The notes under the pieces were generated by a model. The model was not told the DNA's origin, ran no database searches, and saw nothing but the letters and a program-made list of their open reading frames with translations. Both the position numbers and the translations under genes were made by a program. DNA of 64,000 nucleotides. It comes from Chthoniobacterales bacterium. Its GTDB lineage: Bacteria; Verrucomicrobiota; Verrucomicrobiia; Chthoniobacterales; JAFAMB01. Of the stretch, positions 1,955 to 61,666 are shown piece after piece. The stretch covers positions 3,043-67,042 of the forward strand of contig JBAUZZ010000216.1 of the NCBI GenBank assembly GCA_049585495.1, in the 5' to 3' direction. Within the stretch, counting starts at the first letter, position 1; every line of letters starts with the position of its first letter.

Positions 1955-2701
1955 ATGACGCGTTGGACTCTAATTTTGGGGTGGCTTGCTTTAGGCGTGT
2001 TGCCGTTGACCGCCGCGGATTTGAACAGCGCTCTCCTCCGGGCTGACAAACTCGAAGATGCAAACAGGTTTAAGGAGGCGTTGGACACATTGAAGGAGGC
2101 TGACCGAACGAGTCCGGAGAACCCTGCTGTCCTCAGGCGGTTGTCACAGGTGTATTCAGACTTGATTGACATTACTTCAAACGCAGGGGCGAAGAAAGAA
2201 TATGCCCAGCTTGCACTGGCCAACGCGAAGCGAGCGGTAGAAAAGGCGCCGAACGACGCCGAAGCCCATCTTGCGCTGTCGATCGCTTATGGAAAAATCA
2301 CCGACTATGTCGATAACAAAACGAAGATCGAGTACTCAAAGTATTTGAAGTCCGAGGCGGAGCAGGCGATCGAGCTCAATCCGAAATTGGATGACCCCTA
2401 CGAGATTCTCGCGCGTTGGAATTTCGAGATGGCGAGTTTGAATCCGATTGAGCGAGGGTTTGCGCAACTCTTTTACGGCCAGTTACCGCCCGCTTCCAGG
2501 GACAAGGCGCTGGAATATTTTCGCAAGGCGATTTCGCTGGCACCGAATCGAATCATCCATCACGCCGAATACGCTCGCGCGCTGGAGCAAATGGGGCGCA
2601 CGAGTGAAGCAAAGGTTGAATGGCGCAAAGTCATGCAGTTGAAACCAACAGACGAGGGCGATCAAAAGTACCAGGCGGAGGCAGCGGCCAATAGTAAATA
2701 G
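1955..2701 (+). CDS. secreted TPR-like helical repeat protein (paralog of 3290..4126)
   Basis: Start taken at MTRWTLILGWLALGVLPLTAADL, a signal-peptide-like N-terminus (codon 62 of ORF 1772..2701). The body is helical, Ala/Leu/Lys-rich repeats. The C-terminal block ARWNFEMASLNP..GFAQ..YG..P.AS is shared with the neighbouring paralog. Confidence 0.6.
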   Translation: MTRWTLILGWLALGVLPLTAADLNSALLRADKLEDANRFKEALDTLKEADRTSPENPAVLRRLSQVYSDLIDITSNAGAKKEYAQLALANAKRAVEKAPNDAEAHLALSIAYGKITDYVDNKTKIEYSKYLKSEAEQAIELNPKLDDPYEILARWNFEMASLNPIERGFAQLFYGQLPPASRDKALEYFRKAISLAPNRIIHHAEYARALEQMGRTSEAKVEWRKVMQLKPTDEGDQKYQAEAAANSK

Positions 2702-2904
2702 CCGATAGCCAATAGCCAATGGCAGATAGCCAATAGATGACGAATGACAAATGACGGATGACAAACCGAACCCGTGGGAGCTTCGACCAAGAGTTCAACC
2801 CGATTGGTGGGGCGATTCGCCTTGGCGCAAAGCTGCACGGCTCGATCTGTTATTTGTCATTTGTCATCGCGCCTTTGCATCTGTCATCTGTCATTTGTCA
2901 CAGC
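2701..2904. repeat. inverted-repeat hairpin with tandem-heptamer arms (AGCCAAT / NNATGAC tracts versus TTGTCAT/CTGTCAT tracts)
   Basis: The left side has AGCCAAT x3 followed by GAATGAC AAATGAC GGATGAC. The right side (2847-2904) has TTGTCAT TTGTCAT ... CTGTCAT CTGTCAT TTGTCAC, the reverse complement of ATGACAA/ATGACAG. The central spacer is about 75 bp. Confidence 0.8.
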
Positions 2905-3262
2905 TCCTTCGGCTCTTTCCGACCATCAAGGCTAACCATCCGAACAACATCCCGAGCCCGCCGAGCGGCGTGATTGCACCGACCCCTTTCCAATTCGTCA
3001 GAGCCAAGACGTAAAGTGACCCGCTAAAGATGGCGACGCCGGAAAAAATGAGGTAGAATCCTGCTTTCGGAACCGGCCGCCATGTGCTCAGCGTCAGAAG
3101 TACTACGCCGTGAACCAGGTGATACAAGACCGCAGTTTGCCAGAACTGGGTTGTGCCCAGCGTTACCAACCTTCCCTGGAGCGCATGGGCGCCGAACGCG
3201 CCCAGTAAAATTGCCAGAAAACCAAACGTCGCCGCAACATTTCTCTCCAACGCGTTGTTCAT
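2891..3262 (-). CDS. DUF423 (YgdD/TMEM256-like) small membrane protein
   Basis: 123 aa with four hydrophobic helices. FGFLAILLGAFGAHAL...AVLYHLVHGVVLL...GSLYVLAL is the pattern I recognise as the DUF423 family. Confidence 0.75.
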   Translation of the reverse strand: MNNALERNVAATFGFLAILLGAFGAHALQGRLVTLGTTQFWQTAVLYHLVHGVVLLTLSTWRPVPKAGFYLIFSGVAIFSGSLYVLALTNWKGVGAITPLGGLGMLFGWLALMVGKSRRSCDK

Positions 3263-3289
3263 GGTAATCGAAGAAGTGACAAAGGATCT

Positions 3290-4126
3290 ATGAGAAGGTT
3301 ACTCATTTGCTCCGCCCTTCTGGGTATCGTGACGCCAGCCTTTTCGCAAGACCTCGACGAGCTTATCAAACAGGCCGACCAATATGAGAGAAACGGAGAA
3401 ACCGATCTCGCGCTCGGCTCGCTCAGGCAGGCCGAGCAGGTCTCGGCCGATAATCCTCGGGTCGAGAAGCGTTTGGCTCGTGAGTACATTCGAAAGATCG
3501 AAGATGCGGCGGATCCTGCGGCTCGCAAAAGATATGGAGAATTGTCACTCGAACTGGCACAGAAGGCGGCCAGGAAACTCCCCGACGACCCTGAAGCCAG
3601 AGTGGGCTTGGCGGCGGCCTACGGTAAAATGTTGGAAATGGTCGACGACAAGACGAAGATCGAATATTCCCGGCGCGTTTATGCCGAGGCGACCAGAGGA
3701 GTGGCGCTTGACCCCAATAATGATTTCGGGCACCTGATCATTGCTCGATGGAATTTCGAGATGGCAAGCCTCAACCCAGTCATGAAAGGATTCGCCCAGA
3801 TTGTCTATGGCCGATTCCCGACCGCTTCGAAAGAGGAGGCAGTCGTGGAATTCAAGAAAGCAATTCAGCTCGCCCCGGAGCGAATCACCCATCATGCGGA
3901 GTGCGCCAAAGTGCTGGACGCTCTGGGAGAGAAGGATGCGGCGCACCGAGAATGGGCGAAAGTAACGGTATTGAAGGCGACCGATTCCCAAGATAGACGT
4001 TATCAGGCGGCTGCGATTGAACGGCTGAAATCGCCCGCCTCGGTGCCTGCGGAACAAATATTGCCCGACCTGCTTGGACCTGATAAGTCGGGGAGTACGC
4101 GGAATGCCGTCGGAAACCTGCCGTAG
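3290..4126 (+). CDS. secreted TPR-like helical repeat protein (paralog of 1955..2701)
   Basis: MRRLLICSALLGIVTPAFSQ is a signal peptide. The protein is collinear with the 1955..2701 protein, sharing for example DDKTKIEYS and IARWNFEMASLNPVMKGFAQIVYGRFPTASKEEA..F.KAIQLAPERITHHAE. Confidence 0.6.
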   Translation: MRRLLICSALLGIVTPAFSQDLDELIKQADQYERNGETDLALGSLRQAEQVSADNPRVEKRLAREYIRKIEDAADPAARKRYGELSLELAQKAARKLPDDPEARVGLAAAYGKMLEMVDDKTKIEYSRRVYAEATRGVALDPNNDFGHLIIARWNFEMASLNPVMKGFAQIVYGRFPTASKEEAVVEFKKAIQLAPERITHHAECAKVLDALGEKDAAHREWAKVTVLKATDSQDRRYQAAAIERLKSPASVPAEQILPDLLGPDKSGSTRNAVGNLP

Positions 4127-4131
4127 CCTCG

Positions 4132-4767
4132 ATGTTTTCTGTCTACTTTGCGGGCGAGCTTTTTTCCGGTAAGCATCTTCTCGGCAATGCTGCTCTCGCG
4201 GAGGCGGTCGCCAAGGCGTCAAATCTTCAATTCGTTTGTGTCCTGCCGCAAACATTCGAACCTCGTAGTCTCGGCCCTAGAGGCATCCGCGACGAAGACC
4301 TCGTCAACCTGATCAGTTGTGATCTGGCCATTTTCAATTTCGACGGCGGGGAAGTCGACTCTGGCACGGTGGTGGAGTTTCTTTTCGCGAAATTCGCGGA
4401 CATTCCGTCGCTCCTTTTGCGGACCGACTTTCGACGGGCGGGCGATGCCGGGGACGACCCGTGGAATTTGATGATGAGCTTTTACCCGAGAACCCGGGCT
4501 CTGTGCCTGAACAGTATGGAGATCTACGGCTTATCGATCCGTAAAGGGTCGAATCCGGTTCGGGCGGCACAAAACATGATCGAGGCGATCGCGGACAGCG
4601 TTGTTCGGGAACTCCAGATTTTAGCGGAGTCAAAGCCAATCTTACCTGCCGAGCTAAATGAACCGGTGTACCGCTGGCTCGGTGCGTTCCCGGATTTCCA
4701 AACTTCGGAGAGCGCAAATCGAATCATGGCCGCTCTGGCCCAGAAGAAGGCCAAACGACTTCTGTGA
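4132..4767 (+). CDS. nucleoside 2-deoxyribosyltransferase-like protein
   Basis: The N-terminus VYFAGELFSGKHLLGN and the later DGGEVDSGTVVEFLFA (Asp/Glu pair) resemble PF05014-type N-deoxyribosyltransferase-fold proteins. No search was run. Confidence 0.6.
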   Translation: MFSVYFAGELFSGKHLLGNAALAEAVAKASNLQFVCVLPQTFEPRSLGPRGIRDEDLVNLISCDLAIFNFDGGEVDSGTVVEFLFAKFADIPSLLLRTDFRRAGDAGDDPWNLMMSFYPRTRALCLNSMEIYGLSIRKGSNPVRAAQNMIEAIADSVVRELQILAESKPILPAELNEPVYRWLGAFPDFQTSESANRIMAALAQKKAKRLL

Positions 4768-4795
4768 AATCCTCAAAACAAGGCGACACGGCTTT

Positions 4796-6097: not shown

Positions 6098-6152
6098 ACG
6101 ATAATAGTGAGCGCGCCGACGATCGGCCGCGCTCGCGGCATTCTGTTGTTCC

Positions 6153-7268
6153 ATGCGTTACCTGATTGCGCCGGACAAGTTCAAAGGCACACTAAGCGCC
6201 CAAGAGGTCGCCGAAACAATCGCGTCTGCAATCAGGGATAGAGATGCGAGGGCAGCCATCGACCTCCTCCCGATCGCCGATGGTGGCGAAGGAACCGCCA
6301 GGTTGTTGGCAGCCCAGTTATCCGCGGAGCGAAACACCGTCGGAACGCTCGATCCATTGGGCCGCCCTATCGATGCAGAGTTTTTCGTTCGAGGGCACGA
6401 GGCGATTCTTGATATGAGCGCTGCCTCGGGATTATGGCGGGTAAACCCGAACGAGCGCGACCCACTCCGATCGAGTACTTACGGAACTGGAATCATCATT
6501 TGGCACCTGGTTGAGAACGGCATCGAACGAATATTCATAGGTCTGGGGGGAAGCGCGACAGTCGATGCCGGATTGGGGATGGGCGCGGCCCTCGGATATC
6601 GATTCTACGGAACTGGAGACTCCAGAATTGAGCCTTTACCTGTCGCTTTCTCCCAGATCCAAAAAGTGGAGCCCCCTCTGATGACGCGGATGCCGGAGGT
6701 CATTGGGCTGGCCGACGTACAGACAGTTTTGACTGGGCCGCGCGGCGCGACTTATACCTTTGGCCCCCAGAAGGGATTGTCTCCAGTCGAGGTCGAAGCG
6801 CTCGACCGCAGCTTGGCCAGCCTTGTTGTTCGACTCGAACAAGACCTTGGGACGAACTTCTCAAACGTCCAGAGCGCCGGTGCGGCGGGTGGGTTCGGGT
6901 ATGGCATCCTGACGTTTTTGAGAGGCAAGCTCGTCTCGGGCTTCGACATGATAGCAGAAAAGCTCGAGCTTCGGAAACGGATCCGGGCGGCAGACGTCGT
7001 CATCACCGGCGAAGGCAAACTCGATCTGCAATCGTTGCAGGGAAAAGGACCATACGGAGTAGCTGTGCTGGCCAGAGAAGCAACGAAGCCAGTTTGGGCG
7101 ATCGCCGGTATGATCGAAAATCGCAATCTTGTTGAGCGGCACTTCGAAAAATTGATTTCGTTAGCCGATGAGCAAGTCACTCTCGAAGAGGCGATGGGAA
7201 ATCCCGTCGAGCTGCTTCGACGTCGAACGATGCAGCTGTGCGGCAACATTAGCGCCGAAGGCGCGTGA
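6153..7268 (+). CDS. glxK: glycerate kinase
   Basis: MRYLIAPDKFKGTLSAQEVAE...LPIADGGEGT...VITGEGKLDLQSLQGKGP is collinear with the GlxK/GarK glycerate kinase family. Confidence 0.88.
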   Translation: MRYLIAPDKFKGTLSAQEVAETIASAIRDRDARAAIDLLPIADGGEGTARLLAAQLSAERNTVGTLDPLGRPIDAEFFVRGHEAILDMSAASGLWRVNPNERDPLRSSTYGTGIIIWHLVENGIERIFIGLGGSATVDAGLGMGAALGYRFYGTGDSRIEPLPVAFSQIQKVEPPLMTRMPEVIGLADVQTVLTGPRGATYTFGPQKGLSPVEVEALDRSLASLVVRLEQDLGTNFSNVQSAGAAGGFGYGILTFLRGKLVSGFDMIAEKLELRKRIRAADVVITGEGKLDLQSLQGKGPYGVAVLAREATKPVWAIAGMIENRNLVERHFEKLISLADEQVTLEEAMGNPVELLRRRTMQLCGNISAEGA

Positions 7269-7502
7269 GAGCTTAGCCCAGGGTGGAGCGTAGCGGAACC
7301 CTGGGTACCTGTAAAAAAACGCGGCGTAGCTCTGAAGGAGCGGAGGAATCTGTCCAACGCGAAGGCCATAAAACTCGCTCGCTATTTCGGTGGGCGGCCG
7401 CAGTCTGCGACTCGGGGTTCGACTCTCCTGCTCCTTCAGAGCGGTGTGCCTATTGATTCAATACCCAGGGTGCCGCTTCGCTCCACCCTCTGGGCTAAGC
7501 TC
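7269..7502. repeat. long imperfect palindrome (MITE/REP-like, about 235 bp)
   Basis: The outer arm 7269-7307 is GAGCTTAGCCCAGGGTGGAGCGTAGCGGAACCCTGGGTA. It pairs with 7462-7502, TACCCAGGGTGCCGCTTCGCTCCACCCTCTGGGCTAAGCTC. An inner pair is GCTCTGAAGGAGCGGA (about 7331) with TCCTGCTCCTTCAGAGC (about 7426). The element starts right after the glxK stop. Confidence 0.8.
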
Positions 7503-7664
7503 TCTTACGCCTTCGGCGTGCAGCTGCTAACTCGACGCGCACGCACGGACCACTACCGGACGACGTCGGGCCGGCGGAGCGGTTTTTGCAGGTTCGGCTG
7601 CTGCCGTCGGTCAGCTGGCCTTTTGCACAAAGTCCCAAAACCCGCTTAACTTGTCGGCCAAGCG

Positions 7665-8717: not shown

Positions 8718-8750
8718 GCAACGGTCACCAAACACTAACAAGGAAACGAA

Positions 8751-11098: not shown

Positions 11099-11143
11099 CC
11101 CGCAATTTTTGTGCAAAATGCCCGCAAGTTCGGATCCAAATCC

Positions 11144-11326: not shown

Positions 11327-12334
11327 TTACCGGGAAAACTTTCGGATGAAGTCGTACGGATAGGGCAGAGGCACTTCGCTGGCGGAATCCAGCTTCCTGA
11401 TTTGTTTGTCGGACAATGCCCAGCCGACAGCGCCGAGATTACTTTCCAGTTGCTCCATTCTTCGCGCGCCGATAATCGGAGCCGTGACTCCAGGTTGGTG
11501 CAGCAGCCAATTTAGCGCGACTTGGGCCGCCGACCGTTTTGACTCGTCAGCCACTTCGTGCAAGGCGTCCAGAACTCTCCAGGTGTGCTCGTTATTATAA
11601 GCGCTCCACTTCTCACTCCAGTCCTTCTCTTCAGCGATCTGAATCCGACTCCCCTCCGGAGGCGCACTCATGCCGCGCCGGAATTTCCCGGAAAGCCAGC
11701 CACCGCGGAGTGGACTCCACGGGATCACGCCGAGCCCCTCCCGTTGGGCCAGCGGAATCAGTTCCCATTCAGTCGAACGGCATAGGAGATTGTATTGCGG
11801 CTGGAGACAGAAGAAATGCTCCCAGCCCATTTCACGGCTGAGATCAATGGCTCGTTGAAGCTGCCATCCCGTATAATTGCTTGCACCCAGGTATCGGACG
11901 AGACCGCGACGCACAAGATCGTTCAGCGTCGACAGCGTCTCCTCGAGCGGCGTTTGTGAATCCCAACAGTGAACCTGGTAAAGATCCAGATAGTCCGTCT
12001 GTAGTCGCCGCAAACTCGCTTCCACCGCGTTGAGGAGATGCTTCCGGCTGAGACCAAGATCATTCGGGCCATCACCCATCCGAAATCGAGCCTTTGTCGC
12101 AATGATCATGTCATCGCGCCGTTGGCGCTTTAACCAGCGACCGAGGATTTCTTCAGAAACGCCGGTTGAATACACATTCGCGGTGTCAACAAAGTTTCCA
12201 CCCGCTGCGACAAAGCGATCCAGCATCTGATGGCTCTCCTTTTCCGTCGCTTCGTTCTCGCGCCCGAACGTCATTGCACCCAGGCAAAGCTCGCTAACCC
12301 GGAGCCCGGTACGCCCTAAATATCGATAATCCAT
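11327..12334 (-). CDS. aldo/keto reductase
   Basis: [24 protein letters not shown]...DTANVYS.G.SEEILG...LDLYQVH are AKR family motifs. The start is the ATG at 12334 (codon 12 of ORF 11327..12367). Confidence 0.9.
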
Positions 12335-12335: not shown

Positions 12336-12555
12336 ATTAATGATGCCAGGAATGCCCCGATTGCCAAGGGGGGAACAGTGGTCAGTAGTCAGTGGTCAGT
12401 AGTCAGTGGTCAGTGATTATCAGTGATCAGTAATCAGTGAACGGTGAGACGGTGCGGGGTGCGGTCAGGACACCGGTAACGCTACTGACTACTGACCACT
12501 GACCACTGACCACCGGTCCCCCCTTGGCAATCGGGGCATTCCTGGCATTATTAAT
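12336..12555. repeat. 220-bp hairpin: 38-nt unique outer arms plus CAGTRRT tandem-heptamer inner arms
   Basis: 12336-12373 is ATTAATGATGCCAGGAATGCCCCGATTGCCAAGGGGGG. It is the reverse complement of 12518-12555 at 37 of 38 positions. Inward there are CAGTGGT/CAGTAGT x6 then CAGTGAT/CAGTAAT, opposite ACTACTG/ACCACTG x4-5. Confidence 0.9.
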
Positions 12556-21998: not shown

Positions 21999-22241
21999 AC
22001 AGAAGGGCGCAAAAGGGATTTTTACAGAAGCTCACAAAGTTCTCAAAGAGGGTATAGCTCGCGCCCTCAGGTAAGGGCGATGCGGTTCAGCGAGTTGTAG
22101 GGCGGCTGGTTCAGCCGCCGAAAATCACTGCCGCGAACCTCAAGCCAAGTTAAATTTCCCAGGCGCGTGAGCCAGGCGCCCTACAACAGCACCTTTGAGA
22201 TCTTCGAGAGCTTCTGTAAAAACCCCTTTGCGCTCTTCTGT
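21999..22241. repeat. nested composite palindrome (outer about 53-nt inverted arms enclosing a TGTAGGGCGG-type unit)
   Basis: The outer arm 21999-22053 is ACAGAAGGGCGCAAAAGGGATTTTTACAGAAGCTCACAAAGTTCTCAAAGAGGGT. It is inverted relative to 22191-22241. The inner unit at 22096-22185 has the same ends as 800-911. Confidence 0.8.
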
Positions 22242-38855: not shown

Positions 38856-39232
38856 TTTTCGGCATTGGGATTGATGTGGTAGAAAACGCTCGCATTGCGG
38901 ATTCCATCAGGAGACACGGAGATCGTTTCCTCGAGCGGGTTTACCAAACCGCCGAGCTGGAATATTGCCGCTCGATGACAGATCCGATTCCCCATTTCGC
39001 TGCACGATTTGCCGCAAAAGAAGCAGTTTCGAAGGCGTTTGGCACTGGGTTCGCCCAGAACGTGAGTTGGAAAGAAATCGAGGTTAGGCGGAAGGCTAGC
39101 GGAGCGCCCTTCATTGTTCTTCATACGGCAGCTGAGGATCTGGCAAGAAGCTTAGGGATCACAGCTGTTCACATCAGCCTGAGTCACTCCCAGAACTATG
39201 CCGTCGCCAACGCCCTGCTGGTGAAAGAATGA
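38852..39232 (+). CDS. acpS: holo-[acyl-carrier-protein] synthase
   Basis: MIFGIGIDVVENARI...FAAKEAVSKA...SLSHS. The start overlaps the pdxJ stop, matching the conserved pdxJ-acpS pairing. Confidence 0.93.
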   Translation: MIFGIGIDVVENARIADSIRRHGDRFLERVYQTAELEYCRSMTDPIPHFAARFAAKEAVSKAFGTGFAQNVSWKEIEVRRKASGAPFIVLHTAAEDLARSLGITAVHISLSHSQNYAVANALLVKE

Positions 39233-39307
39233 GAGTTCCGCGTTCAGAGTTCCGCGTTCCGCGGCCGTGACAGACGCGGGACGCGGAACCTGAAACTCGG
39301 AACCTGG
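39233..39307. repeat. hairpin with GNGTTCC heptamer arms
   Basis: GAGTTCC GCGTTCA GAGTTCC GCGTTCC GCG - loop - CGCGGGACGCGGAACCTGAAACTCGGAACCTGG. It begins 1 nt after the acpS stop. Confidence 0.75.
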
Positions 39308-39320: not shown

Positions 39321-40040
39321 ATGGAGCGCGATTACAAGGTAACTCTGGAGGTTTTCGAAGGACCGCTCGATCTTCTGCTCTATCTCATCAAGAAGGAAGA
39401 AGTCGATATTTATGATATCTCGATCGAAAAGATCACCGCGCAGTACCTGGAGTACCTGAACAGCTTCCGGATGCTGGATCTGGAGATTGCGGGCGAGTTC
39501 GTCGTCATGGCAGCGAATCTGATCTATATCAAGAGCCGAAGCCTGTTGCCTGTGCATCAGCAACCTCCCGACGAAGACGCGGAGGAAGTGGATCCACGTT
39601 GGGACCTCATCCGACAGTTGATCGAATACAAGAAGTTTAAAGACGCCGCTTTTCACCTCCACCAACGCGAACTCGGGCAGGAAGGAATGTTCCCCCGCCT
39701 GCCGGATAAACCGGCAGGGTCCGATGTCCTTCTCAAATCCGAGGTGGGCATCTTCGATCTGATCAATGCGTTCCAGCGGGTCCTTAAAAAACTTCAAGGT
39801 AAGCGGGAAGATCTGCGCGAAATCTTCGAAGAGAACTACACTGTCTCGGACAAGATCGACTACCTCATGCGCGCGACGCAGTTCGAAAAACCCACCTTCT
39901 TTTCCCAGCTCTTTGCCTTGGCCGCGTCGCGAACCGAAATTGTGGTGACATTCCTGGCTCTCCTCGAGCTCATTCGTCTCAAACAGCTCCGAGTCGCCCA
40001 GAGCGAGCCGTTTGCCGAGATCGAAATCAGGAGACTTTAA
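39321..40040 (+). CDS. scpA: segregation and condensation protein A
   Basis: YKVTLEVFEGPLDLLLYLIKKEEVDIYDISI..IT.QYL is the ScpA N-terminal signature. Confidence 0.92.
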   Translation: MERDYKVTLEVFEGPLDLLLYLIKKEEVDIYDISIEKITAQYLEYLNSFRMLDLEIAGEFVVMAANLIYIKSRSLLPVHQQPPDEDAEEVDPRWDLIRQLIEYKKFKDAAFHLHQRELGQEGMFPRLPDKPAGSDVLLKSEVGIFDLINAFQRVLKKLQGKREDLREIFEENYTVSDKIDYLMRATQFEKPTFFSQLFALAASRTEIVVTFLALLELIRLKQLRVAQSEPFAEIEIRRL

Positions 40041-40084
40041 TGGTAGGATGGACAGTTGGAACGGTCCATCCTACCATTAAAGTC
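40033..40084. repeat. perfect 21-bp stem-loop spanning the scpA stop codon
   Basis: GACTTTAATGGTAGGATGGAC (40033-40053), loop AGTTGGAACG, then GTCCATCCTACCATTAAAGTC (40064-40084). No T-tract follows. Confidence 0.85.
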
Positions 40085-40090
40085 TGAGGC

Positions 40091-40858: not shown

Positions 40859-41900
40859 TGGCATCGACTCTGAATTGCTATGGCTGCTCAATCAACGCGC
40901 TGAACTGGTGCATGAGATTGGCGTCTTAAAGAAAGAGGCCGGCTTATCGATTTATGCACCTGAACGCGAGGAGACGCTGCTCCAGTCTCTGGTACAAAGG
41001 AGTCAGGGCCGATTGCCACCCGTCTCGATCCGGGCGATCTACCGGGAGATCATGTCAGCCTCGCTTGCCCTCGAAAAGGATTTGACGATCTCCTACCTCG
41101 GCCCAGAGGCAACCTGGACACATCAAGCCGCGCGGGCAAAATTCGGAGCATCCGTCCGCTACGATCCCCAGTCGAATATCGGAGACGTCTTCGACCAGGT
41201 GACCCGCCGCCGCGCAGACTACGGCGTCGTTCCGATCGAAAACTCGGTGGAGGGCGCCGTGAATCACACGCTGGACGTTTTCATGGATTCAGAACTCAAG
41301 ATCTGTGCCCAGATCCTGTTGCGGATCGAAAACAATTTTCTTGCAGCAGGTGCTCGCGAGGAAATCAAAAAAATCTATTCGCATCCGCAGGTCTTCGGAC
41401 AATGCCGGAAGTGGCTCCAAAACTACGCGCGCGGCCTCGAGTTGATCGAGGTGTCCAGCACCACTCGGGCGGCCGAGATCGCTGCGCACGAACCTGGCGC
41501 AGCCGCCCTCGCCGGCGCGATGGCAGCGGAAATTTACAGGCTTCAGGTTTTGGAGCGGTCGATTCAAGACAGCCCGAACAACACGACTCGATTCCTGGTG
41601 ATTTCGCACACAACCTGCCCACCGACAGGTAACGATAAAACCTCATTGATGTTTTGTGTTCACGATCGCGTCGGCGCGCTGTACTCGGCTCTGGAGCCAT
41701 TCAATCGGCTCAAGTTGAGCATGAGCAAAATTGAAAGCCGGCCATCGAAGCGAAAAAACTGGGAGTACTTTTTCTTCGTCGACATCGAGGGTCACTGCGA
41801 CGACAAACCCGTCAAGGATGCGCTGCATGAGCTGGAGAAGCACTGCACTTTTGTCAAGGTCCTGGGGAGTTATCCGAAAACGGAAGCGGTGGGGGGATAG
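40812..41900 (+). CDS. pheA: bifunctional chorismate mutase / prephenate dehydratase (P-protein)
   Basis: The CM domain is LEEIRNQIDGIDSELLWLLNQRA. The PDT domain is ISYLGPEATWTHQAA...VPIENSVEG. The ACT domain is TSLMFCVHDRVGALYSALEPF...ESRP. The GTG start at 40812 overlaps the scpB 3' end. Confidence 0.92.
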   Translation: MEPSKPSLEEIRNQIDGIDSELLWLLNQRAELVHEIGVLKKEAGLSIYAPEREETLLQSLVQRSQGRLPPVSIRAIYREIMSASLALEKDLTISYLGPEATWTHQAARAKFGASVRYDPQSNIGDVFDQVTRRRADYGVVPIENSVEGAVNHTLDVFMDSELKICAQILLRIENNFLAAGAREEIKKIYSHPQVFGQCRKWLQNYARGLELIEVSSTTRAAEIAAHEPGAAALAGAMAAEIYRLQVLERSIQDSPNNTTRFLVISHTTCPPTGNDKTSLMFCVHDRVGALYSALEPFNRLKLSMSKIESRPSKRKNWEYFFFVDIEGHCDDKPVKDALHELEKHCTFVKVLGSYPKTEAVGG

Positions 41901-42565
41901 GGCTCGTTCGTTTCTCGTGTCTCGTGTCTCGTGTCTCGTGTCTCGCCTCGTTTGCGCGCTCTGGAACTTTGGGAATGAAATAGTACTTGCAACGCCAAGC
42001 CGATTTATATAACATCTTTGCCAGATGTTCTATGAATAAGATTCAGTCTTTTGAAGACTTCGATGCATTCAAAATAGCGAGAGAGTTTTGCCGGGCCGTA
42101 GGGAGAATAGTCCGAAGCCAGACCTTCAGTGATGACCGCAGTCTACGTTGGCAGATTGAGAAATCACTCGTCTCCATCCTCTCTAACTTTGCAGAGGGAT
42201 TTGAGCGCGATGGGCGTCAGGAATTCATTCAGTTCCTGACAATCGCTAAGGGATCTGCAGGTGAAGCTCGTGCACAGTTGATCTACGCTTATGACCAAGG
42301 TCTGATCGACGAGGCGACGTTCCAATCGCTGCACGATTTAGGCGTTAGAGTTTCGGCGATCTTCGGCGGTTTATTGAAACATCTCTCCCAATCCGAATAC
42401 TCCGGAATCAAATTTAGGAAATTCAACGCATCGCCGAATCAGAGAACGGTTCCTGGAAGGCAAGCAAGTCCGGCTTCCGGAAATCAAACAAAGATCTCAG
42501 GAGATAGCGAAAAACGAGAGACGAGAAACCAGAGACGAGAAACGAGAGACGAATAACGAATGAGC
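41901..42565. other. IVS-like cassette: four-helix-bundle gene bracketed by tandem-heptamer inverted arms
   Basis: The left arm 41901-41956 is GGCTCGTTCGTTTC(TCGTGTC)x4TCGCCTCGTTTGCG. The right arm 42507-42565 is GCGAAAAACGAGAGACGAGAAACCAGAGACGAGAAACGAGAGACGAATAACGAATGAGC. The arms are reverse-complementary with about one mismatch per heptamer, and the outer termini are GCTC(G/A)TTCGTT. Confidence 0.75.
42032..42556 (+). CDS. four-helix-bundle protein (23S rRNA intervening-sequence protein family, PF05635/TIGR02436-like)
   Basis: MNKIQSFEDFDAFKIAREFCRAVGRIV...QIEKSLVSILSNFAEGFERDGRQEFIQFLTIAKGSAGEARAQLIYAYDQGLI is the family's characteristic pattern. The C-terminal tail of about 50 aa runs into the right repeat arm (..EKRETRNQRRETRDE) and is probably not native. 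Confidence 0.8.
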   Translation: MNKIQSFEDFDAFKIAREFCRAVGRIVRSQTFSDDRSLRWQIEKSLVSILSNFAEGFERDGRQEFIQFLTIAKGSAGEARAQLIYAYDQGLIDEATFQSLHDLGVRVSAIFGGLLKHLSQSEYSGIKFRKFNASPNQRTVPGRQASPASGNQTKISGDSEKRETRNQRRETRDE

Positions 42566-42566
42566 T

Positions 42567-43145
42567 TTACCGCCCGACGTAGATGGCGTCGCTTGGCCAA
42601 TCCGGTCTTAAGTAGCCTCCATTCATGTTAACGAGAGGCAGGTAGTTGCGCATGACGCGGACCGGGGCCAGCAGACGAACAGTCGAGACCGCTTCGATCG
42701 AATTGTCTCCGTGGTTTTTCACAAGACTCGGAATCAATTCCTCGTGGATTCGCCGGACTATATCCAGGTCACTGGTCCCGTCGACAAACAGCAGCAAGGC
42801 GACTTTCCCATCTATCTCAGCGATATGACTTTCAAAGATGCTCTCCGTGAACACCGTCTGCTGGCTGGACTCTTGACGCATTTCATCCACTACCTGGGTA
42901 TAGGTGACACCAACCCGAAACTTAATGATGTAGAGATTGCGTGTGTTGAATTGTTTCGCACCGTCTGAGGAGAGATCGAGGTTCGTGTAATAAGAGAGAA
43001 TACCCTCTTGCTCCAGGCGCGATCGCTTCCGACTCACGGTACGAACGTTGACTCCGGTAAGCTCTGCTACGCCGTTGTCTGATTCGCGCGGGTCTCTGAT
43101 TAGCTGGCGAACAATCGCCTTTTCTTGCTCATCTAAAATTCTCAT
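42567..43145 (-). CDS. Lrp/AsnC-like winged-helix transcriptional regulator
   Basis: MRILDEQEKAIVRQLIRDPRESDNGVAELTGVNVRTVSRKRSRLEQEGIL is an AsnC-type HTH. The C-terminal half is longer than and divergent from the canonical RAM domain. The gene is divergent from gltB. Confidence 0.6.
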   Translation of the reverse strand: MRILDEQEKAIVRQLIRDPRESDNGVAELTGVNVRTVSRKRSRLEQEGILSYYTNLDLSSDGAKQFNTRNLYIIKFRVGVTYTQVVDEMRQESSQQTVFTESIFESHIAEIDGKVALLLFVDGTSDLDIVRRIHEELIPSLVKNHGDNSIEAVSTVRLLAPVRVMRNYLPLVNMNGGYLRPDWPSDAIYVGR

Positions 43146-52325: not shown

Positions 52326-52334
52326 CGGAATTTT

Positions 52335-53709: not shown

Positions 53710-53776
53710 GTTCATAACGCGATGACGGCACGGACTGTTGTGGTAAGGTGAAAGTGCGACATCGCTAAACCTTTTT

Positions 53777-56943: not shown

Positions 56944-57254
56944 TCAATCCTCGGCAGGAGCAGACCAACGGATGTGGTAACTGGAGGGTGATGTTCCGCC
57001 ATCGCCGCGATATGGCTCCCAATGAAAAACGCTACGACGGAGCGTAGCGCAGCTTGTGGCTTCTTATTTGGTAGGGTCGTTTCTCCGAAACGATCGAAAT
57101 TTCATTTGAGCCAGAAAGTCCCGAAATCTTGCGTGATGTGTCGAAGTGAACGTTTTCGAACGCTTTATGACGCAAAATCGGCGCCCGCTCGTGAGTCCAA
57201 CAACAAATTTTCTTCGAGAAACTGACCATCCGCCGGTATAGTTCCAATTCGAGC

Positions 57255-58448
57255 ATGATCCAACGAGATTACCTTATTGTCGGCGGTGGCGTCGCGGCCG
57301 CGAGTGCTTGCGAAGCATTGCGCCAATATGACCCAAAAGGATCGGTGACACTCGTCAGCAACGAGCCGCACCTTCCTTACCAGCGACCTCCGTTGTCAAA
57401 AGTTGTCCTCAAGGACGGATATCCATCCATCGAAAAGCTGGCCGAAAGATCAGCGGACTGGTATCGGAAAAGGGGAGTCGAGGTGCGGATCGCGACCCTA
57501 GTCCGCGAGTTTAACATCGAACGAAGACTCGCCGTTCTGGAGAATGGTCAAACGGTTGAATTTCGCAAGGCCTGTCTCGCGACCGGAAGCCGGGCGCGGC
57601 GGCCTCAGGTGGCTGGCGCGAATCTTGGGAACGTGGTCTATCTGCGAACCTATCGGGATGTTCTTGCGATACGCGAAATCCTGAGTTCGGAAAAGCACGT
57701 GGTTATCGTGGGATCCGGTTATCTGGGGGCTGAAGCGGCTTCGTCATTGCTCCAGTCCGGTTGCAAACTTACCCTGCTCAGCCGGGACAAAGCGATCTGG
57801 CAGGAGCTCTTGGATCCGCAAACGGCGGATTGGCTCACCAATCGATTTAGCGATGCTGGTGTCCAGCTATTGCTGAACGAGAACTTGAACGGATTCGAGG
57901 GCAAGACTGCCGTGCGGAATGTTCAAACCAAGAGCGGTCTTCGTTTCCCTGCCGGACTCGCAATCGTCGCGATCGGCACTGAGCCAAATCTGCAGCTTGT
58001 CACAAATACGCCTCTTAGCAGCCCTGGCGGCTGCCCGGTGAATGAGTACCTCGAAAGCGATGAAAAAGGCATCTATGCCGTTGGGGATATCGCTCTCTAC
58101 CCAGACCGAATTTATGGTGGCGCTCGCCGGGTCACGAACTACGAAATGGCCAAGGCTCAAGGACTGGTCGCAGGTGCAAACATGACCGGCCGGAAACGGC
58201 AAAAATTCGAGATTGTGCCAACTTGCTCCAGCAGCGTTCTTGGGATGCATTTCGATTTCGTTGGCGACTTCAGCACGCCCCACCTTTTGGCCGATCTCGA
58301 TGGTTCGAGAGAAAAGGCAAACTTTATCGCCAGATATCGTCGCGGCGATCTCTTGACCGCAGCCGTTTTGTGCAATCGGAAGCCGGACGAAGTCAGACGG
58401 ATTCAGGAAGAAGTCAAAATCAGCATGTTTTCGCGATTGAAGAAGTAG
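57255..58448 (+). CDS. NAD(P)/FAD-dependent oxidoreductase (ferredoxin reductase/AIF-like)
   Basis: The FAD GxGxxA motif is YLIVGGGVAAASA. The NAD GxGxxG motif is VVIVGSGYLGAE. There is also YAVGD. Confidence 0.85.
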   Translation: MIQRDYLIVGGGVAAASACEALRQYDPKGSVTLVSNEPHLPYQRPPLSKVVLKDGYPSIEKLAERSADWYRKRGVEVRIATLVREFNIERRLAVLENGQTVEFRKACLATGSRARRPQVAGANLGNVVYLRTYRDVLAIREILSSEKHVVIVGSGYLGAEAASSLLQSGCKLTLLSRDKAIWQELLDPQTADWLTNRFSDAGVQLLLNENLNGFEGKTAVRNVQTKSGLRFPAGLAIVAIGTEPNLQLVTNTPLSSPGGCPVNEYLESDEKGIYAVGDIALYPDRIYGGARRVTNYEMAKAQGLVAGANMTGRKRQKFEIVPTCSSSVLGMHFDFVGDFSTPHLLADLDGSREKANFIARYRRGDLLTAAVLCNRKPDEVRRIQEEVKISMFSRLKK

Positions 58449-58497
58449 ACTTCACGAGTTTCGAGTTCCGAGTTCAAGATATGGGTGTTTGTTCGCT

Positions 58498-58523
58498 TGT
58501 AGGGCGGCTGGGTCAGCCGCCGG
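58498..58523. repeat. solo TGTAGGGCGGCTGGGTCAGCCGCCGG end
   Basis: Identical to the left end of the 800-911 unit, with no partner end nearby. Confidence 0.7.
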
Positions 58524-58540
58524 ACCTTCGGGAATTTACC

Positions 58541-59443
58541 CTAGAAGACCGCGGGAACCCCCTCTTTCATCACAGACACCATCGATTCGATGTGATGCTG
58601 GCGAACAGCGGCTCCAAGGCGGTACAGTGGCTCTTCCAGAGGCTCGTAGCTCAATCGGAACGAGCCGTAGTGCATTGGGACCATACGCTTTGCCTTCAGT
58701 TCCAGGAACGCACGGACGGCTTCCTCCGGGTTCATGTGGACCTCACGCCGGCTAAGGGATTCGTATGCTCCGATTGGCAACAACGCTATTTCGGTCGGGA
58801 GCCGGTCTCCAATCTCGGCGAACCCCTTGAAGTAGGCGCTGTCGCCGCAATGAAACACGGTCCGCTTGCCCAGCTTGAGATGGAAGCCACCAAATCCGCG
58901 GCGGTAATCGTGGAGCACCCGGGCACCCCAATGGTGACACGGTGTCAAGGTGACGCTAATTTCGCCGACGGCCAGGGTTTCCCATGGAAGAAGTTCATGC
59001 ACGCGATTGAAGCCCAGGTCGAAGACTAAATTACCCACGCCCTGAGGCACTATAATCGGTTGGGCATCGGCTATCCTCCGCAGGGTACGACGATCGAGAT
59101 GGTCGAAGTGAGCATGTGTCACCAGCACCAGGTCGATTTCCGGCAAATGGTCAAGCCGGATGCCAGGACGCTGGATTCGTTTTAGCACTTTCAACCAAAG
59201 CGACCAGATCGGGTCCACCAGAATGTTCAGTCCGCGCCAGCCGATAAGAAAGGAGGCGTGACCAATCCAGGTCAGGCCGATTTCGTCCGAGCCTAACGCC
59301 GGAAACGTCGGGCGTAACGGCCGGCCCTTTCGCCGGGTGAACAGGGAGGGCAAATAAACTTCGGTGATGAAGTTTCTCCTTAACCAGCCTCTTCCCGGTC
59401 GGAGACCGACTCGATACCCATGATTCGGCGAAGTATTCGACAC
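58541..59443 (-). CDS. MBL-fold metallo-hydrolase
   Basis: LVLVTHAHFDHLD is the HxHxDH motif. WIGHASFLI... fits the Lactamase_B_2/3 type. The start position is uncertain. Confidence 0.8.
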   Translation of the reverse strand: MSNTSPNHGYRVGLRPGRGWLRRNFITEVYLPSLFTRRKGRPLRPTFPALGSDEIGLTWIGHASFLIGWRGLNILVDPIWSLWLKVLKRIQRPGIRLDHLPEIDLVLVTHAHFDHLDRRTLRRIADAQPIIVPQGVGNLVFDLGFNRVHELLPWETLAVGEISVTLTPCHHWGARVLHDYRRGFGGFHLKLGKRTVFHCGDSAYFKGFAEIGDRLPTEIALLPIGAYESLSRREVHMNPEEAVRAFLELKAKRMVPMHYGSFRLSYEPLEEPLYRLGAAVRQHHIESMVSVMKEGVPAVF

Positions 59444-59474
59444 AGCACAAGAGTTTCTATTGAATTGTACCGAA

Positions 59475-60026
59475 ATGGCAACCGACCGCTCGATTCATTT
59501 TTGGAAGCGGGATCTGCGTTCGCAAATGAAGCGCCGGCTTCGGGAACTTCAAAAAGAGCAATACGAGGCGAAGTCGGCAAAAATCTGCCACAAGGTCACA
59601 AACAGTTTCGCATCTGCGAACGTCGTTGCGGCGTTCGCATCCAGCCGATTTGAACCAAACCTTGAGACGCTGTGGACTCAGGGTTTTTTTGTACGGAGAA
59701 TCGCTCTCTATCCGAAAATCGACGGCAACAATCTTGTATTTTGTCCTGTGGCTTTCAGCAGCGAGCTGAGCCCGGGCCAACTCGGAATTCGCGAGCCGGT
59801 CACCCCGCCGACACGACTCAATCCGGACGTCATTCTCGTACCGGGGCTCGCCTTCAGCAGCAATGGCTATCGACTTGGACGAGGCGCGGGGTTTTACGAC
59901 CGTTTTTTAGGTCTAAGCTCTACCAACATGATCAAGGCCGGGATTTGTTTCGATTTCCAGCTTATCCCTGAGCTGCCGATCGAATGTCACGATGTGCGGA
60001 TGGATTTGGTCATTAGCGATGAGTAA
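59475..60026 (+). CDS. 5-formyltetrahydrofolate cyclo-ligase
   Basis: LGIREP....PDVILVPGLAFSSNGYRLGRGAGFYDRFL is the family signature. ATG at 59475. Confidence 0.88.
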   Translation: MATDRSIHFWKRDLRSQMKRRLRELQKEQYEAKSAKICHKVTNSFASANVVAAFASSRFEPNLETLWTQGFFVRRIALYPKIDGNNLVFCPVAFSSELSPGQLGIREPVTPPTRLNPDVILVPGLAFSSNGYRLGRGAGFYDRFLGLSSTNMIKAGICFDFQLIPELPIECHDVRMDLVISDE

Positions 60027-60207
60027 GAGAGTGAGTGCGAGTGCGAGTGAAAAGGGCAAGGGTTGAATAAGGGTTCAATGGATAACCAAACAACCCTGTC
60101 CCACAGAGCTCCGAAGCGCCGACGAAAACCGTCACCAGCAGACCTCCACGATCAGTACACACTCGCACTCACACTCACACTCACACTCGCACTCGCACTC
60201 ACACTCC
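60027..60207. repeat. inverted-repeat hairpin with tandem-hexamer arms (GAGTGC / CACTCG-CACTCA)
   Basis: The left arm is GAGAGTGAGTGCGAGTGCGAGTGAAAAG (60027-60054). The right arm 60155-60207 is (CACTCG/CACTCA)x8. There is a perfect 19-nt match, GTGAGTGCGAGTGCGAGTG. The central spacer is about 100 bp. Confidence 0.85.
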
Positions 60208-60579
60208 GGCAGCGGGCACCTGCATCTCAAACCTTGGGATGCGCACGATAAACGGCTCGCCGCCATCGGTTATTCCAAGGAACGAACCTTCAGCAACGCT
60301 ATCGGTTCCTATCACGTGGTAACTGTTGTAAGAGAAGCGTTCCCCCGGCTTCAGGCGGGGTAATTCGCCGACAACCCCGTCACCCTCGACGACGACCTTT
60401 TCTCCGAGTTGATCTGTGATGACCCACTTCCGGCCGCGAATCGTGATCGTTTCAGATGATTGGTTATCAATCGTTATGAAGTAGACGAAAGGGTACGGTC
60501 GATCGGGAGGTGCCTCCAGCGTTGGCACGTAGATAAGTCTGTCGACCGTTACGCGAAGATCAGTGAGTTCATGAAACAC
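60199..60579 (-). CDS. apaG: ApaG (DUF525) protein
   Basis: RVTVDRLIYVPTLEAPPDRPYPFVYFITIDNQS.ETITIRGRKWVITDQLGEKVVVEGDGVVGELPRLKPGERFSYNS is the ApaG fold pattern. I chose the GTG at 60579, giving 126 aa (typical size). The track ORF extends to 60711 and would overlap thiD. Confidence 0.75.
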   Translation of the reverse strand: MFHELTDLRVTVDRLIYVPTLEAPPDRPYPFVYFITIDNQSSETITIRGRKWVITDQLGEKVVVEGDGVVGELPRLKPGERFSYNSYHVIGTDSVAEGSFLGITDGGEPFIVRIPRFEMQVPAAGV

Positions 60580-60628
60580 GACAGAATCAGCTCTACAATG
60601 GCAGATTTCGATTGGAAAGTCTGATTCT

Positions 60629-61426
60629 ATGCCAACTCCTGTTGCCCTTACGATCGCAGGATCAGACAATTCCGCCGGAGCGGGAATCCAGGCCGACCTG
60701 AAGACCTTCACTCATTTCCGGGTCTATGGGCAAACAGTTGTTAGTTGTGTAGTTGCCGAAGTTCCAGGCAGAGTCTTTCGGATTCAGCCGGTCGACCTTG
60801 AAGTCATTCGCGACCAACTGTCTTTGAGCTTGGGATATTTCCCCGTGAGCGCAATCAAGACCGGTATGCTGTTTTCCGCAGAGATCGTCGATTTGGTCTG
60901 TGACGCCATTGGATCGCAACCAAAGGCTCGGCGACCTGCCCTGGTCGTCGATCCGGTAATGGTGGCGGGTTCTGGCGATGCCTTGCTTCAATCCGACGCG
61001 ATCGAGCGTTACCGAGATCGCTTATTTCCACTTGCCTCGGTAGTGACGCCAAACCTGAATGAGGCTGGGTTGCTGCTGGGAAGGAGCATCTCAACGCTGG
61101 AGGCACTGCATCGAGCGGCAGCAGAATTGGCCTCCTGTTACGGTGTTCCATTTCTCGTCAAGGGTGGACACTTGCCCGGCCCGTCCGCCGTCGATCTGCT
61201 AGTCGCGGGCGATCGCGAGATCGAAATGTCGGCGCCGTACCAGGCGAATATCTCAACGCATGGCACGGGTTGTACATTCTCTGCTGCGATTGCGGCGAAC
61301 CTCGCCCTTGGTAAAAACCTTCAAGAGGCCGCACAGTCGGCAAAAAGCTTTATCACCCGAGCGATCTCAAGCTCCCTCCAGTGGACGGGTAGCCAAGGTG
61401 AGATCTCGGCCTTGAACCCATGGTAG
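60629..61426 (+). CDS. thiD: hydroxymethylpyrimidine/phosphomethylpyrimidine kinase
   Basis: VALTIAGSDNSAGAGIQADLKTF...AIKTGML...VVDPVMVA..G...TPNL.EA...VKGGH...HGTGCTFSAAIAA. Confidence 0.94.
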   Translation: MPTPVALTIAGSDNSAGAGIQADLKTFTHFRVYGQTVVSCVVAEVPGRVFRIQPVDLEVIRDQLSLSLGYFPVSAIKTGMLFSAEIVDLVCDAIGSQPKARRPALVVDPVMVAGSGDALLQSDAIERYRDRLFPLASVVTPNLNEAGLLLGRSISTLEALHRAAAELASCYGVPFLVKGGHLPGPSAVDLLVAGDREIEMSAPYQANISTHGTGCTFSAAIAANLALGKNLQEAAQSAKSFITRAISSSLQWTGSQGEISALNPW

Positions 61427-61449
61427 GGCGCCGGTCGTCGTCCGGCTTA

Positions 61450-61666
61450 GGTGACCAGTAGCCAGGGGGGTCAGTAGTCAGTGGTCAGTAGCCAGTAGCC
61501 AGTAATCTGTAATCTATGGTCGGTGGCCCGTCCGCGATTTTCTTTGCAGCTCGGCGGGCTGAGAGCGGTGCAGCAGAATCTGTCTAGGCATGACGTTCCC
61601 GTGGAACCAGCTACAGACCACAGCTTACTGACTACTGATTACTGATTTACTGACCACCCGATCACC
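61450..61666. repeat. inverted-repeat hairpin with CAGTRRY tandem-heptamer arms (same heptamer as 12336 element)
   Basis: The left arm is GGTGACCAGTAGCCAGGGGGGTCAGTAGTCAGTGGTCAGTAGCCAGTAGCCAGTAATCTGTAATC. The right arm is ..CTGACTACTGATTACTGATTTACTGACCACCCGATCACC. The outer ends are GGTGA(C/T)C / G(A/G)TCACC. The spacer is about 80 bp. Confidence 0.8.

Follow-up and report, generated by a model that had tools for sequence, protein, structure and literature searches.

The question raised by the stretch of DNA discussed here, a window of 64,000 nucleotides (nt) from a metagenome-assembled genome of Chthoniobacterales (Verrucomicrobiota), is what kind of element is formed by the six long hairpins in it, whose arms are inverted arrays of tandem repeats placed at the borders of genes. 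The original prediction, made from the window alone, described them as hairpins of one common design. The best answer, to which a probability of roughly 0.6 is given, is that the six loci are one class of elements of the intervening sequence (IVS) type, that is, "slippery palindromes" which occur in mRNA and intergenic contexts with or without an open reading frame (ORF) and which would be excised by RNase III. The class is defined as an insert at a gene boundary that is bordered by inverted arrays of tandem 6–9-nt repeats (mostly 7), and whose loop consists of a short unique spacer or contains a small passenger gene. Locus 4 (41901–42565) is taken as the complete cassette and the other five loci as its ORF-less counterparts, comparable to the short ORF-less rRNA IVSs that occur in enterobacteria.

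First of all, the hairpins exist as they had been described. Tandem tracts were located by Tandem Repeats Finder (TRF) and complementary arms by an inverted-repeat search at the six loci, and these results, together with readings of the sequence and folding, confirmed all six hairpins and their common design. Compared with 200 dinucleotide shuffles, all six loci fold better than expected, with z-scores from -3.7 to -16.5. Their frequency is also beyond chance: when tracts of period 5–10 were counted, the window contained 18 of them, while 100 third-order Markov simulations of the window gave a mean of 1.54 and a maximum of 6; five inverted tract pairs and no direct pair were found in the window, and not a single inverted pair in all 100 simulations. 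The sixth locus (39233), the right arm of which is below the TRF threshold, is plain in sequence and fold. Five different repeat units are used across the six loci, the CAGTRRT unit being common to two of them, and all six loci sit between protein-coding genes, the identities of which were confirmed by Pfam. A scan of the window at the Rfam gathering scores gave only a tRNA and Acido-Lenti-1, with no rRNA and no family over any of the six loci.

The most informative member of the class is locus 4. Its 5′ arm (41901–41946, plus strand) consists of 5.4 (T/G)TCTCGT-type heptamers directly after the pheA stop codon (41898–41900), its 3′ arm (42507–42565, plus strand) consists of 5.6 CGAGARA heptamers, and a convergent AsnC-type gene stops at 42567, 1 nt beyond the locus. 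In the TRF register these tracts are TCGTGTC (5.4 copies, 41908–41945) and ACGAGAG (5.6 copies, 42514–42552), and in the fold of the whole 678-nt cassette the ends are paired (z -3.8). The wording "cassette arms" used in the original prediction fits this locus well; however, the interior of about 550 bp, which had been regarded as a unique spacer, is in fact occupied by an overlooked gene (42032–42556, plus strand) that encodes a four-helix-bundle protein of 174 amino acids from the S23p/Avd family, to which the ORFs of the long 23S rRNA IVSs belong. It matches PF05635 of Pfam with 80.5 bits (cut-off 33.8, E 1.3e-22) and TIGR02436 of NCBIfam with 82.3 bits (cut-off 24, E 2.7e-23), it has more than 334 homologues, and its closest solved structure is 2GSC, the Xanthomonas XCC0516 protein (E 4.8e-6). 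The C-terminal tail of the protein is encoded by the 3′ arm of the cassette. Against its orthologues, the gene has a ratio of nonsynonymous to synonymous substitution (dN/dS) of 0.08–0.14, which is similar to that of its neighbours (pheA 0.03–0.06, scpB 0.22) at a comparable dS, so that, judged from substitution patterns, it is under purifying selection and functional. No internal sigma-70 promoter was found in the cassette. A role in a defence system was also considered and was rejected, as PADLOC gave no match. It is this PF05635 gene that links the whole hairpin family to the intervening sequences of 23S rRNA.

The cassette is not confined to one genome. A PF05635 profile was built from 33 homologues, and a scan of one genome per species yielded 80 loci from Acidobacteriota, Bacteroidota, Verrucomicrobiota, Planctomycetota, Desulfobacterota, Nitrospirota and other phyla (the labels L001–L195 used below denote the comparison contigs and loci of this analysis). 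The flanks of the 74 loci with enough flanking sequence were scored for inverted repeats beside 260 controls in which an identical geometry was displaced along the locus. Around a PF05635 gene, the best inverted repeat had a median score of 41.5, compared with 20 in the controls, and 93% of the 74 loci exceeded the 95th percentile of the controls and 70% their maximum. At the comparison loci, inverted pairs outnumbered direct pairs by 81 to 25; the period was 7 in 164 of 217 arm tracts and mostly 8 or 9 in the remainder, and the arms had a median length of 32 nt (4.6 copies) on either side. When rotated into one register, the 5′ units converge on the consensus GTYYMAR, namely G (0.78), T (0.96), T/C, C/T, A/C, A and A/G, for example GTTCAAA, GTCCAAA and GTTTCTG, and the reverse-complemented 3′ arm has the same profile. 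Both the window cassette (GTGTCTC/GTTTCTC) and locus 3 (GTTCCGC/GTTCAGA) match this consensus.

A unit consensus and polarity conserved among cassettes with related four-helix-bundle proteins also suits a different explanation, in which the arms are arrays bound by the pentameric four-helix-bundle protein or by a nucleoid protein of the host, and the inversion provides symmetric binding or DNA looping. The Avd relatives in the four-helix-bundle family bind nucleic acid. The PF05635 proteins are homologous to Avd of the diversity-generating retroelements (PMC10053308), the 2GSC protein is a homopentamer (PMC4990558) and each arm holds about 4–5 units, and IHF/HU has been proposed for paired repeats by the authors of a Geobacter study (PMC2700814). 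However, the gene-less hairpins and the cassettes with a GxxExxY gene, described below, use other units with periods of 6, 8 and 9 nt, and the units differ even among orthologous cassettes, which makes the binding of such a protein a rather unlikely reason for the arms.

With regard to position, the cassette is a compact, sense-oriented insert of about 0.5 kb at an intercistronic junction. When the neighbour was taken as the longest ORF in 600 nt on each side (median 420 and 470 amino acids), the upstream gene ran in the same direction as the four-helix-bundle gene at 58 of 63 loci, with a median of 3 nt between its stop codon and the 5′ arm, and the downstream gene was co-directional in 59 of 63; the one-sided binomial probability of this bias is about 1e-12. 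The same result was given by a nearest-ORF version, which is open to bias from spurious ORFs that end at the arms, and the distance of 9 nt to the downstream start is a mechanical value, as it refers to the first possible start codon. The flanking genes are typical operon partners: HlyD then AcrB in nine loci, DUF1549/DUF1553 then DUF1501, SufBD, periplasmic binding protein then ABC ATPase, and RecG then RsmD. Since only about 28 nt lie between the 5′ arm and the start of the gene match, which leaves little room for a promoter in most lineages, the cassette would usually be transcribed from the host operon.

This position bears directly on the terminator role that the original prediction had suggested for testing, that is, on the reading of the hairpins as transcription terminators, bidirectional between convergent genes, or as REP-like stabilisers of mRNA 3′ ends. 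Three of the six window loci do lie between convergent genes, the arms begin at or within stop codons, and the stems are very stable. Nevertheless, a scan of 41700–42800 found no terminator-like site and, on reading of the sequence, no T-run follows any of the six hairpins; most cassettes lie inside operons between co-directional partners, where termination would be polar, and one window locus is placed between divergent start codons. A terminator role is therefore very unlikely.

The comparison loci also include some extreme forms. In L050 (2271–3102; Pyrinomonadaceae chromosome OZ252004), the GATTCAA arms are 215 nt long, with about 30 copies each and 96% complementarity. In L012, each side of the cassette (2380–2486 and 2888–2955) is itself a complete hairpin, GGTTTCT against AACCAGA at 2–7 nt distance, so that nested palindromes flank the cassette. 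In L077 (869–2405), successive intergenic hairpins, including the arms of a four-helix-bundle cassette, share the unit ATTCCAG, whereas nearly every locus of the window has its own unit.

The arms change in whole units. Near-identical strains were found via exact AcpS, ThiD, DUF423 and aldo-keto reductase proteins, and orthologous sites in relatives via ThiD; the flanks and the cassette gene of these strains are about 99–100% identical to those of the window, but the arms differ, with unit-sized insertions or deletions at four of the six loci. At locus 3, L004 has a right arm shorter by 7 nt and L003 one shorter by 14 nt, and a hairpin is also found at this site in the more distant relative L093. 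The left arm of locus 4 is shorter in L001 and L005 and longer by 14 nt in L004, where its unit is changed throughout from GTGTCTC to GTTTCTC and the right arm is 14 nt shorter. Locus 5 has two extra hexamers in L094, while at locus 6 other units are found in L096 and contigs are broken off within the arm. No length change was seen at locus 1 in five other strains, and locus 2 was of equal length in the only two comparable assemblies. The variation in repeat number that characterises contingency loci is thus found at four of six loci, and no connection with on/off switching of a gene was observed. The expectation that slippage in either arm is tolerated and the stem retained was borne out, since strains differ by 7, 14 or 12 nt in each arm independently.

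In spite of such changes, the two arms of a locus co-evolve. In 49 cassettes, the unit distance between an arm and its own partner was 0.55, in contrast to 2.69 between arms of different cassettes, and none of 10000 permutations reached the observed value. The HlyD–AcrB junction is occupied in eight Acidobacteriota and the DUF1553–DUF1501 junction in five Verrucomicrobiota; the units of these orthologous cassettes differ (AGTTCAA, GGTTTCT, GGTCCAA), both arms of each agree, and the cassettes are inherited vertically at orthologous operon junctions. Similarly, the pheA–AsnC site of locus 4 is occupied in L091, L092 and L093, with full-length four-helix-bundle proteins 71% (L093) and 81% (L091 and L092) identical to that of the window. 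In L091, the interior (window 42007–42552) is in the opposite orientation while the flanks keep theirs, and the breakpoints lie in the arms, so that it is a clean inversion. That is to say, at the DNA level, whole units slip and units turn over while the arms stay matched, and recombination between the arms can invert the interior. As a side effect, short-read contigs end within repeat arms (L090 at 1–110, L094 at its end, L096 at both ends), L090 ending in GGGTAAC ×15 or more and a 72.8-kb ENA contig stopping 23 nt after ThiD; such elements therefore fragment metagenome assemblies.

Unit insertions and deletions, unit turnover between strains, co-evolution of the arms and inversion of the interior all agree with the main rival explanation, namely that the hairpins are a by-product of DNA metabolism: replication slippage makes arrays out of ordinary short intergenic palindromes, intrastrand template switching (quasipalindrome correction) copies changes to the other arm, and the result has no function, with passenger genes surviving best inside. 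What this explanation leaves unexplained is the GTYYMAR consensus with fixed polarity across phyla, the sense bias of 58 in 63 loci, the clustering of arms at about 32 nt, and the near-identical arms that travel with GxxExxY genes across phyla. It is considered improbable.

These GxxExxY genes are the second passenger of the same design. In L015, inverted tandem 8-mers (ACACAAAG / TCTTTGTG) enclose a GxxExxY protein of 127 amino acids (TIGR04256/PF13366, PDDEXK_3). Two further GxxExxY contexts have nearly identical arms directly against the start and stop codons, one of them between two co-directional radical-SAM genes, so that near-identical arms are carried in three unrelated contexts in all. 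The homologues are 75–97% identical across bacterial phyla and archaea, in agreement with the "multiple transfers" noted earlier for this family (PMC3424549), and arms and gene clearly move together. Since GxxExxY genes occur in the same design, the repeat-armed hairpin is a vehicle open to more than a single passenger. Downstream of the GxxExxY cassette in L195, before the next gene, there is a run of GACATTT/GTCATTT heptamers (2000–2075), which resembles the unit of locus 1 (TGTCATT).

The clear mobility of the GxxExxY cassettes, with proteins of 75–97% identity and near-identical arms in different phyla, brings to mind transposable elements of the miniature inverted-repeat kind (MITEs) or REPIN-like elements, in which the arms would be terminal inverted repeats for a transposase acting in trans. 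The inverted termini and the presence or absence of hairpins among relatives fit as well. On the other hand, the six window loci share no arm or spacer sequence, the ends of the window cassette show no target-site duplication, no similar copies of it were found in the window, and the gene list of 28.8–49.2 kb contains no transposase, RAYT or integrase. Moreover, vertical inheritance at orthologous operon junctions extends across whole families, and the chance that the hairpins are such transposable elements is judged to be slim, the smallest among the explanations weighed here.

The remaining five window loci are gene-less. Hairpin 1 (2737–2900, z -4.7) is composed of a 5′ arm (2737–2765), a unique spacer (2766–2844) and a 3′ arm (2845–2900), in which TRF found ATGACRA ×3.7 (2737–2762) against TGTCATY ×7.7 (2848–2900), and its 3′ arm includes the DUF423 stop codon (2891–2893). 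Directly before it, an unpaired tract of about seven GCCAATA-type heptamers (2687–2736, plus strand), found by TRF and in the sequence, overlaps the last codons and the stop (2699–2701) of a TPR gene, and the tract-pair search of the window showed no complementary tract near it. Hairpin 3 (39232–39304, z -7.2), consisting of a GNGTTCC arm (39232–39263), a 12-nt loop and the complement (39276–39304), is located in the gene row pdxJ-acpS-scpA-scpB-pheA, and its first base is the last base of the acpS stop codon (39230–39232). Hairpin 5 (60021–60206, z -5.7) has an arm of GAGTGM hexamers (60021–60049), a unique spacer of 108 nt and a CACTCR ×8.2 arm (60158–60206), with the 5-FCL stop (60024–60026) in the left and the ApaG stop (60199–60201) in the right arm. 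Hairpin 6 (61450–61666, z -3.7) has a GTCAGTA/GCCAGTA arm, a spacer of about 105 nt and a TACTGAY arm, with GTCAGTA ×5 at 61470–61504 against TACTGAC ×4 at 61626–61654; it lies between the co-directional ThiD and Lactamase_B_3 genes and begins 23 nt past the ThiD stop.

Hairpin 2 (12336–12555, z -16.5) is built differently at its edges, with a unique outer stem of 40 bp (12336–12375/12516–12555) around a CAGTRRT arm (12376–12439), a loop and an ACTGACY arm (12484–12513), so that a 72-nt arm pair (12336–12407/12484–12555) is 94% complementary. According to independent gene calls, the divergent start codons at 12334 and 12558 lie at its edges and the whole intergenic space of 223 nt is occupied; the promoters of both divergent genes must be located inside the hairpin. 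Because the entire divergent region is palindromic, one and the same stretch of 40 nt, CCCCCCTTGGCAATCGGGGCATTCCTGGCAT..., stands directly upstream of the start codons of both the aldo-keto reductase and the aminotransferase gene (12336–12375, 12516–12555), and it could place the two genes under common control.

Taken together, these elements take up the room between adjacent genes and in many cases provide the stop codons of those genes. The gene-boundary placement given by the original prediction holds for the acpS, pheA, 5-FCL, DUF423 and ApaG stops, for the AsnC-type stop 1 nt off and for the two starts at locus 2. Two details had to be corrected: the TPR stop is overlapped by the additional unpaired GCCAATA tract, and locus 6 starts 23 nt after the ThiD stop instead of 0–1 nt. 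A solo tract of GAGTTYC ×3 (58455–58475, plus strand), which starts 6 nt past a stop codon (58446–58448) and is without a complementary partner, may be a half element.

Some other palindromes of the window were observed beside these loci. The scpA–scpB junction is filled by a 26-bp palindrome (40032–40085, 96% complementary, 2-nt loop), which also overlaps the stop codon of scpA. In the relative L093 this palindrome is conserved and, through a change, has become fully symmetric at its centre, and L091 has different palindromes instead. A small dispersed hairpin repeat, TGTAGGGCGGCTGGKTCAGCCGCC, has at least three copies (22094–22120, 22162–22187 and 58498–58524); the copies at 22012–22229 are nested in another inverted repeat with 37-nt arms, and the 58498 copy comes after the solo heptamer tract. 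A nested imperfect palindrome of about 266 nt (7253–7518) is situated between the genes for glycerate kinase and a DinB-type polymerase; its arms are not tandem repeats, and its left end matches the Rfam family Acido-Lenti-1 on the minus strand (43.3 bits, gathering score 37).

Gene-less inverted tandem-repeat hairpins are also found in the flanks of cassettes in other phyla, for example in L020, L049, L050, L054, L058, L077 and L084. At a given site they come and go. The hairpin of locus 5 is absent in the close relative L097, where ApaG is 92% identical and about 35 nt separate the 5-FCL and ApaG stops, and it is absent as well in L104, L105 and L109; in L111, a hairpin of GGGGCGAC 8-mers abuts the ApaG stop. 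The ThiD/Lactamase_B_3 site has 8-mer arms (GCGGTAAA) and a different spacer in L097–L099 and nothing comparable in L102 and L104. Furthermore, the last codons and stops of ApaG and 5-FCL in the window come from the repeat arms (60199–60206 and 60021–60026): the ApaG C-terminus is EMQVPAAGV* in the window versus EMKAPH* in the hairpin-free L097 (1775–1850), and that of 5-FCL is VISDE* versus VIAG*. Since different units, different periods or nothing at all are found at the same sites in relatives, the sites gain, lose or replace hairpins quickly, and the arms can redefine the ends of neighbouring ORFs. Such turnover would also be expected of a DNA-level by-product.

As for the origin of the gene-less hairpins, two candidates were rejected. 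A derivation from decayed cassettes was not supported: no remnant gene was found, local alignments of eight spacers with five cassette interiors gave z-scores of -0.8 to 1.2, and a resemblance seen by eye in L099 was not significant. Nor are they copies of one repeat family, as the spacers are unique.

The proposed mechanism for the IVS-type class is as follows. Read-through from the upstream gene would transcribe the element, the arms would form a double-stranded RNA stem of about 25–70 bp, and RNase III would cut this stem, so that the insert is excised and the flanking cistrons remain usable, in the same way as fragmented 23S rRNA stays functional. The element would then be a largely selfish insert that shields the host from its own presence, and the periodic arms would keep the stem pairable after slippage. 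The generalisation of the design is broad and statistically strong, while the functional step, excision of window-type elements by RNase III, is argued by analogy.

Several points weigh against this account. RNase III processing is an analogy for all loci, and at locus 2, which lies between divergent starts, it is unlikely that a hairpin forms in read-through RNA. In 68 cassette stems, mismatches of the G-U type on the sense RNA number 123 and those of the A-C type 111 (p 0.47), by which RNA-specific selection on the stems, tried as a candidate, was rejected; as there is no strand-specific RNA signature, a DNA-level mechanism could alone maintain the complementarity. The symmetric mismatch counts and the position of locus 2, where no RNA hairpin would be expected, thus count in favour of the DNA by-product explanation. 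In addition, the stem of the window cassette is 85% complementary in the inverted-repeat search, with a G-G or G-A mismatch in nearly every unit. A permissive six-frame hidden Markov model search of the whole window found only one four-helix-bundle gene and no trace of another in the five gene-less spacers, which share no sequence with each other or with cassette interiors; three gene-less unit types (GTCAGTR, ATGACRA and GAGTGC) fall outside GTYYMAR. What relates the gene-less hairpins to the cassette is their design, their co-occurrence and a partial similarity of units. Finally, the comparison set of 80 loci was made up of the best matches to the profile of one subfamily, and their ORF ends were called mechanically.

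If the IVS-type reading is correct, its meaning goes beyond this window. IVSs have so far been regarded as a peculiarity of rRNA genes and the proteins of PF05635 and GxxExxY as abundant "hypotheticals", and bacterial intergenic DNA is known to be enriched in heptamer repeats without an accepted reason (cited in PMC4679880 and PMC4692102); the evidence joins all three in one stem-plus-passenger design between operon genes of many phyla. Were RNase III to cut the stems, polycistronic mRNAs would be split and the relative stability of cistrons could be set, which would be an unrecognised layer of operon expression. In practice, short-read assemblies are broken by the arms, annotated stop codons are displaced, and proteins receive tails that the repeats encode. 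A further idea, speculative and itself improbable, is that IVS-type cassettes are a single ancient selfish class across phyla that colonises hairpin tips and intercistronic junctions of any highly transcribed RNA, rRNA being no more than the case that was noticed first, and that the passenger proteins (the Avd-like pentamer on GTYYMAR arrays, the GxxExxY PD-(D/E)XK nuclease) act on the arms and might create, maintain or move them, possibly via an RNA or cDNA intermediate. If this were true, the elements and their ORF-less derivatives would explain much of the heptanucleotide excess in bacterial intergenic DNA.

Among known systems, repetitive extragenic palindromic (REP) sequences, their assemblies as bacterial interspersed mosaic elements (BIMEs) and REPINs are likewise intergenic or intercistronic palindromes that can form long mRNA hairpins and affect mRNA stability. 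The REPs of a genome make up a single conserved sequence family that RAYT transposases mobilise, and tandem repeats are not what their arms consist of; the window arms, in contrast, are periodic, differ by locus and share no sequence except CAGTRRT at two loci, so that they are not REP or REPIN elements. With respect to the diversity-generating retroelements, to whose Avd the PF05635 proteins are homologous, neither a reverse transcriptase nor a template or variable repeat is present in the gene list of 28.8–49.2 kb.

The original prediction held paired inverted heptamer tracts to be undescribed, but there are precedents in Coxiella (PMC4990558), Xanthomonas (PMC4692102) and Geobacter (PMC2700814). 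It was thus supported in part: it understated the hairpins, which are IVS-type elements outside rRNA, and overstated their novelty, as parts of the pattern had been published. Their unification was not found in the literature searched, a search that left most subscription journals outside and gave no paper on the general cassette architecture, the operon placement or the repeat consensus; an earlier description is possible.

The short tandemly repeated repetitive (STRR) sequences of heterocystous cyanobacteria and the TAACTGA repeats of Beggiatoaceae are intergenic tandem heptamers very near to start and stop codons, described as direct arrays (PMC4679880), and inverted pairing is rare among them: in the Beggiatoa genome it concerns one set out of 170, and in Nostoc "only a few" (PMC4679880, PMC4692102). 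The window host is not a cyanobacterium, and its six loci have five units rather than a few genome-wide types, which sets them apart from STRR sequences. In Geobacter metallireducens, 53 "paired sites" (24 + 21 + 8) were reported, each with 3–5 tandem 7–9-mers on opposite strands at a variable distance, for example a pair about 100 nt apart between moaA and mosC, and they were interpreted as putative IHF/HU binding sites (Aklujkar et al. 2009, PMC2700814); they belong to few unit classes genome-wide, whereas the unit of the window differs at almost every locus. In Xanthomonas, 70–75 convergent pairs of GGGAATC tracts occur per genome, with lengths that vary between related strains (Rehm et al. 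2015, PMC4692102). These are likewise intergenic heptamer tracts on opposite strands close together, and differ by their single genome-wide G-rich unit. They were studied as formers of G-quadruplexes, with no link to IVSs, PF05635 or RNase III, although a table of the same paper lists, uncommented, one tract between bccP (XCC0517) and XCC0516, the gene of the crystallised S23p protein, the start of which it abuts (PMC4692102).

The closest system is the rRNA IVS. The IVSs with an S23p ORF in Coxiella, Leptospira and Xanthomonas have the same passenger family, PF05635, as locus 4, while the other five window loci are without an ORF; the terminal inverted repeats forming a long stem, by which rRNA IVSs are recognised, are found at the window loci as well. 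The window elements lie between protein-coding genes and not in a 23S rRNA helix. In Coxiella burnetii, the 23S IVS is 428 nt long with a terminal stem of 28 bp; two or three tandem GACAGAT heptamers, the number depending on the strain, stand a short way upstream of the ATG of S23p, cleavage by RNase III in vitro takes place at the first repeat, and the ORF was judged by the authors to be decaying (PMC4990558). The window elements differ from it in that both arms are extended periodic arrays of 4–9 units and the gene is under purifying selection, whereas the GACAGAT unit itself is nearly that of window locus 1 (GACAAAT, GACGGAT). The two have in common strain-variable heptamers in the stem, a sense-oriented ORF and vertical inheritance, the RNase III excision being that of Coxiella, and among the literature searched it is only the Coxiella paper that joins heptamers, four-helix-bundle ORF, IVS and RNase III (PMC4990558).

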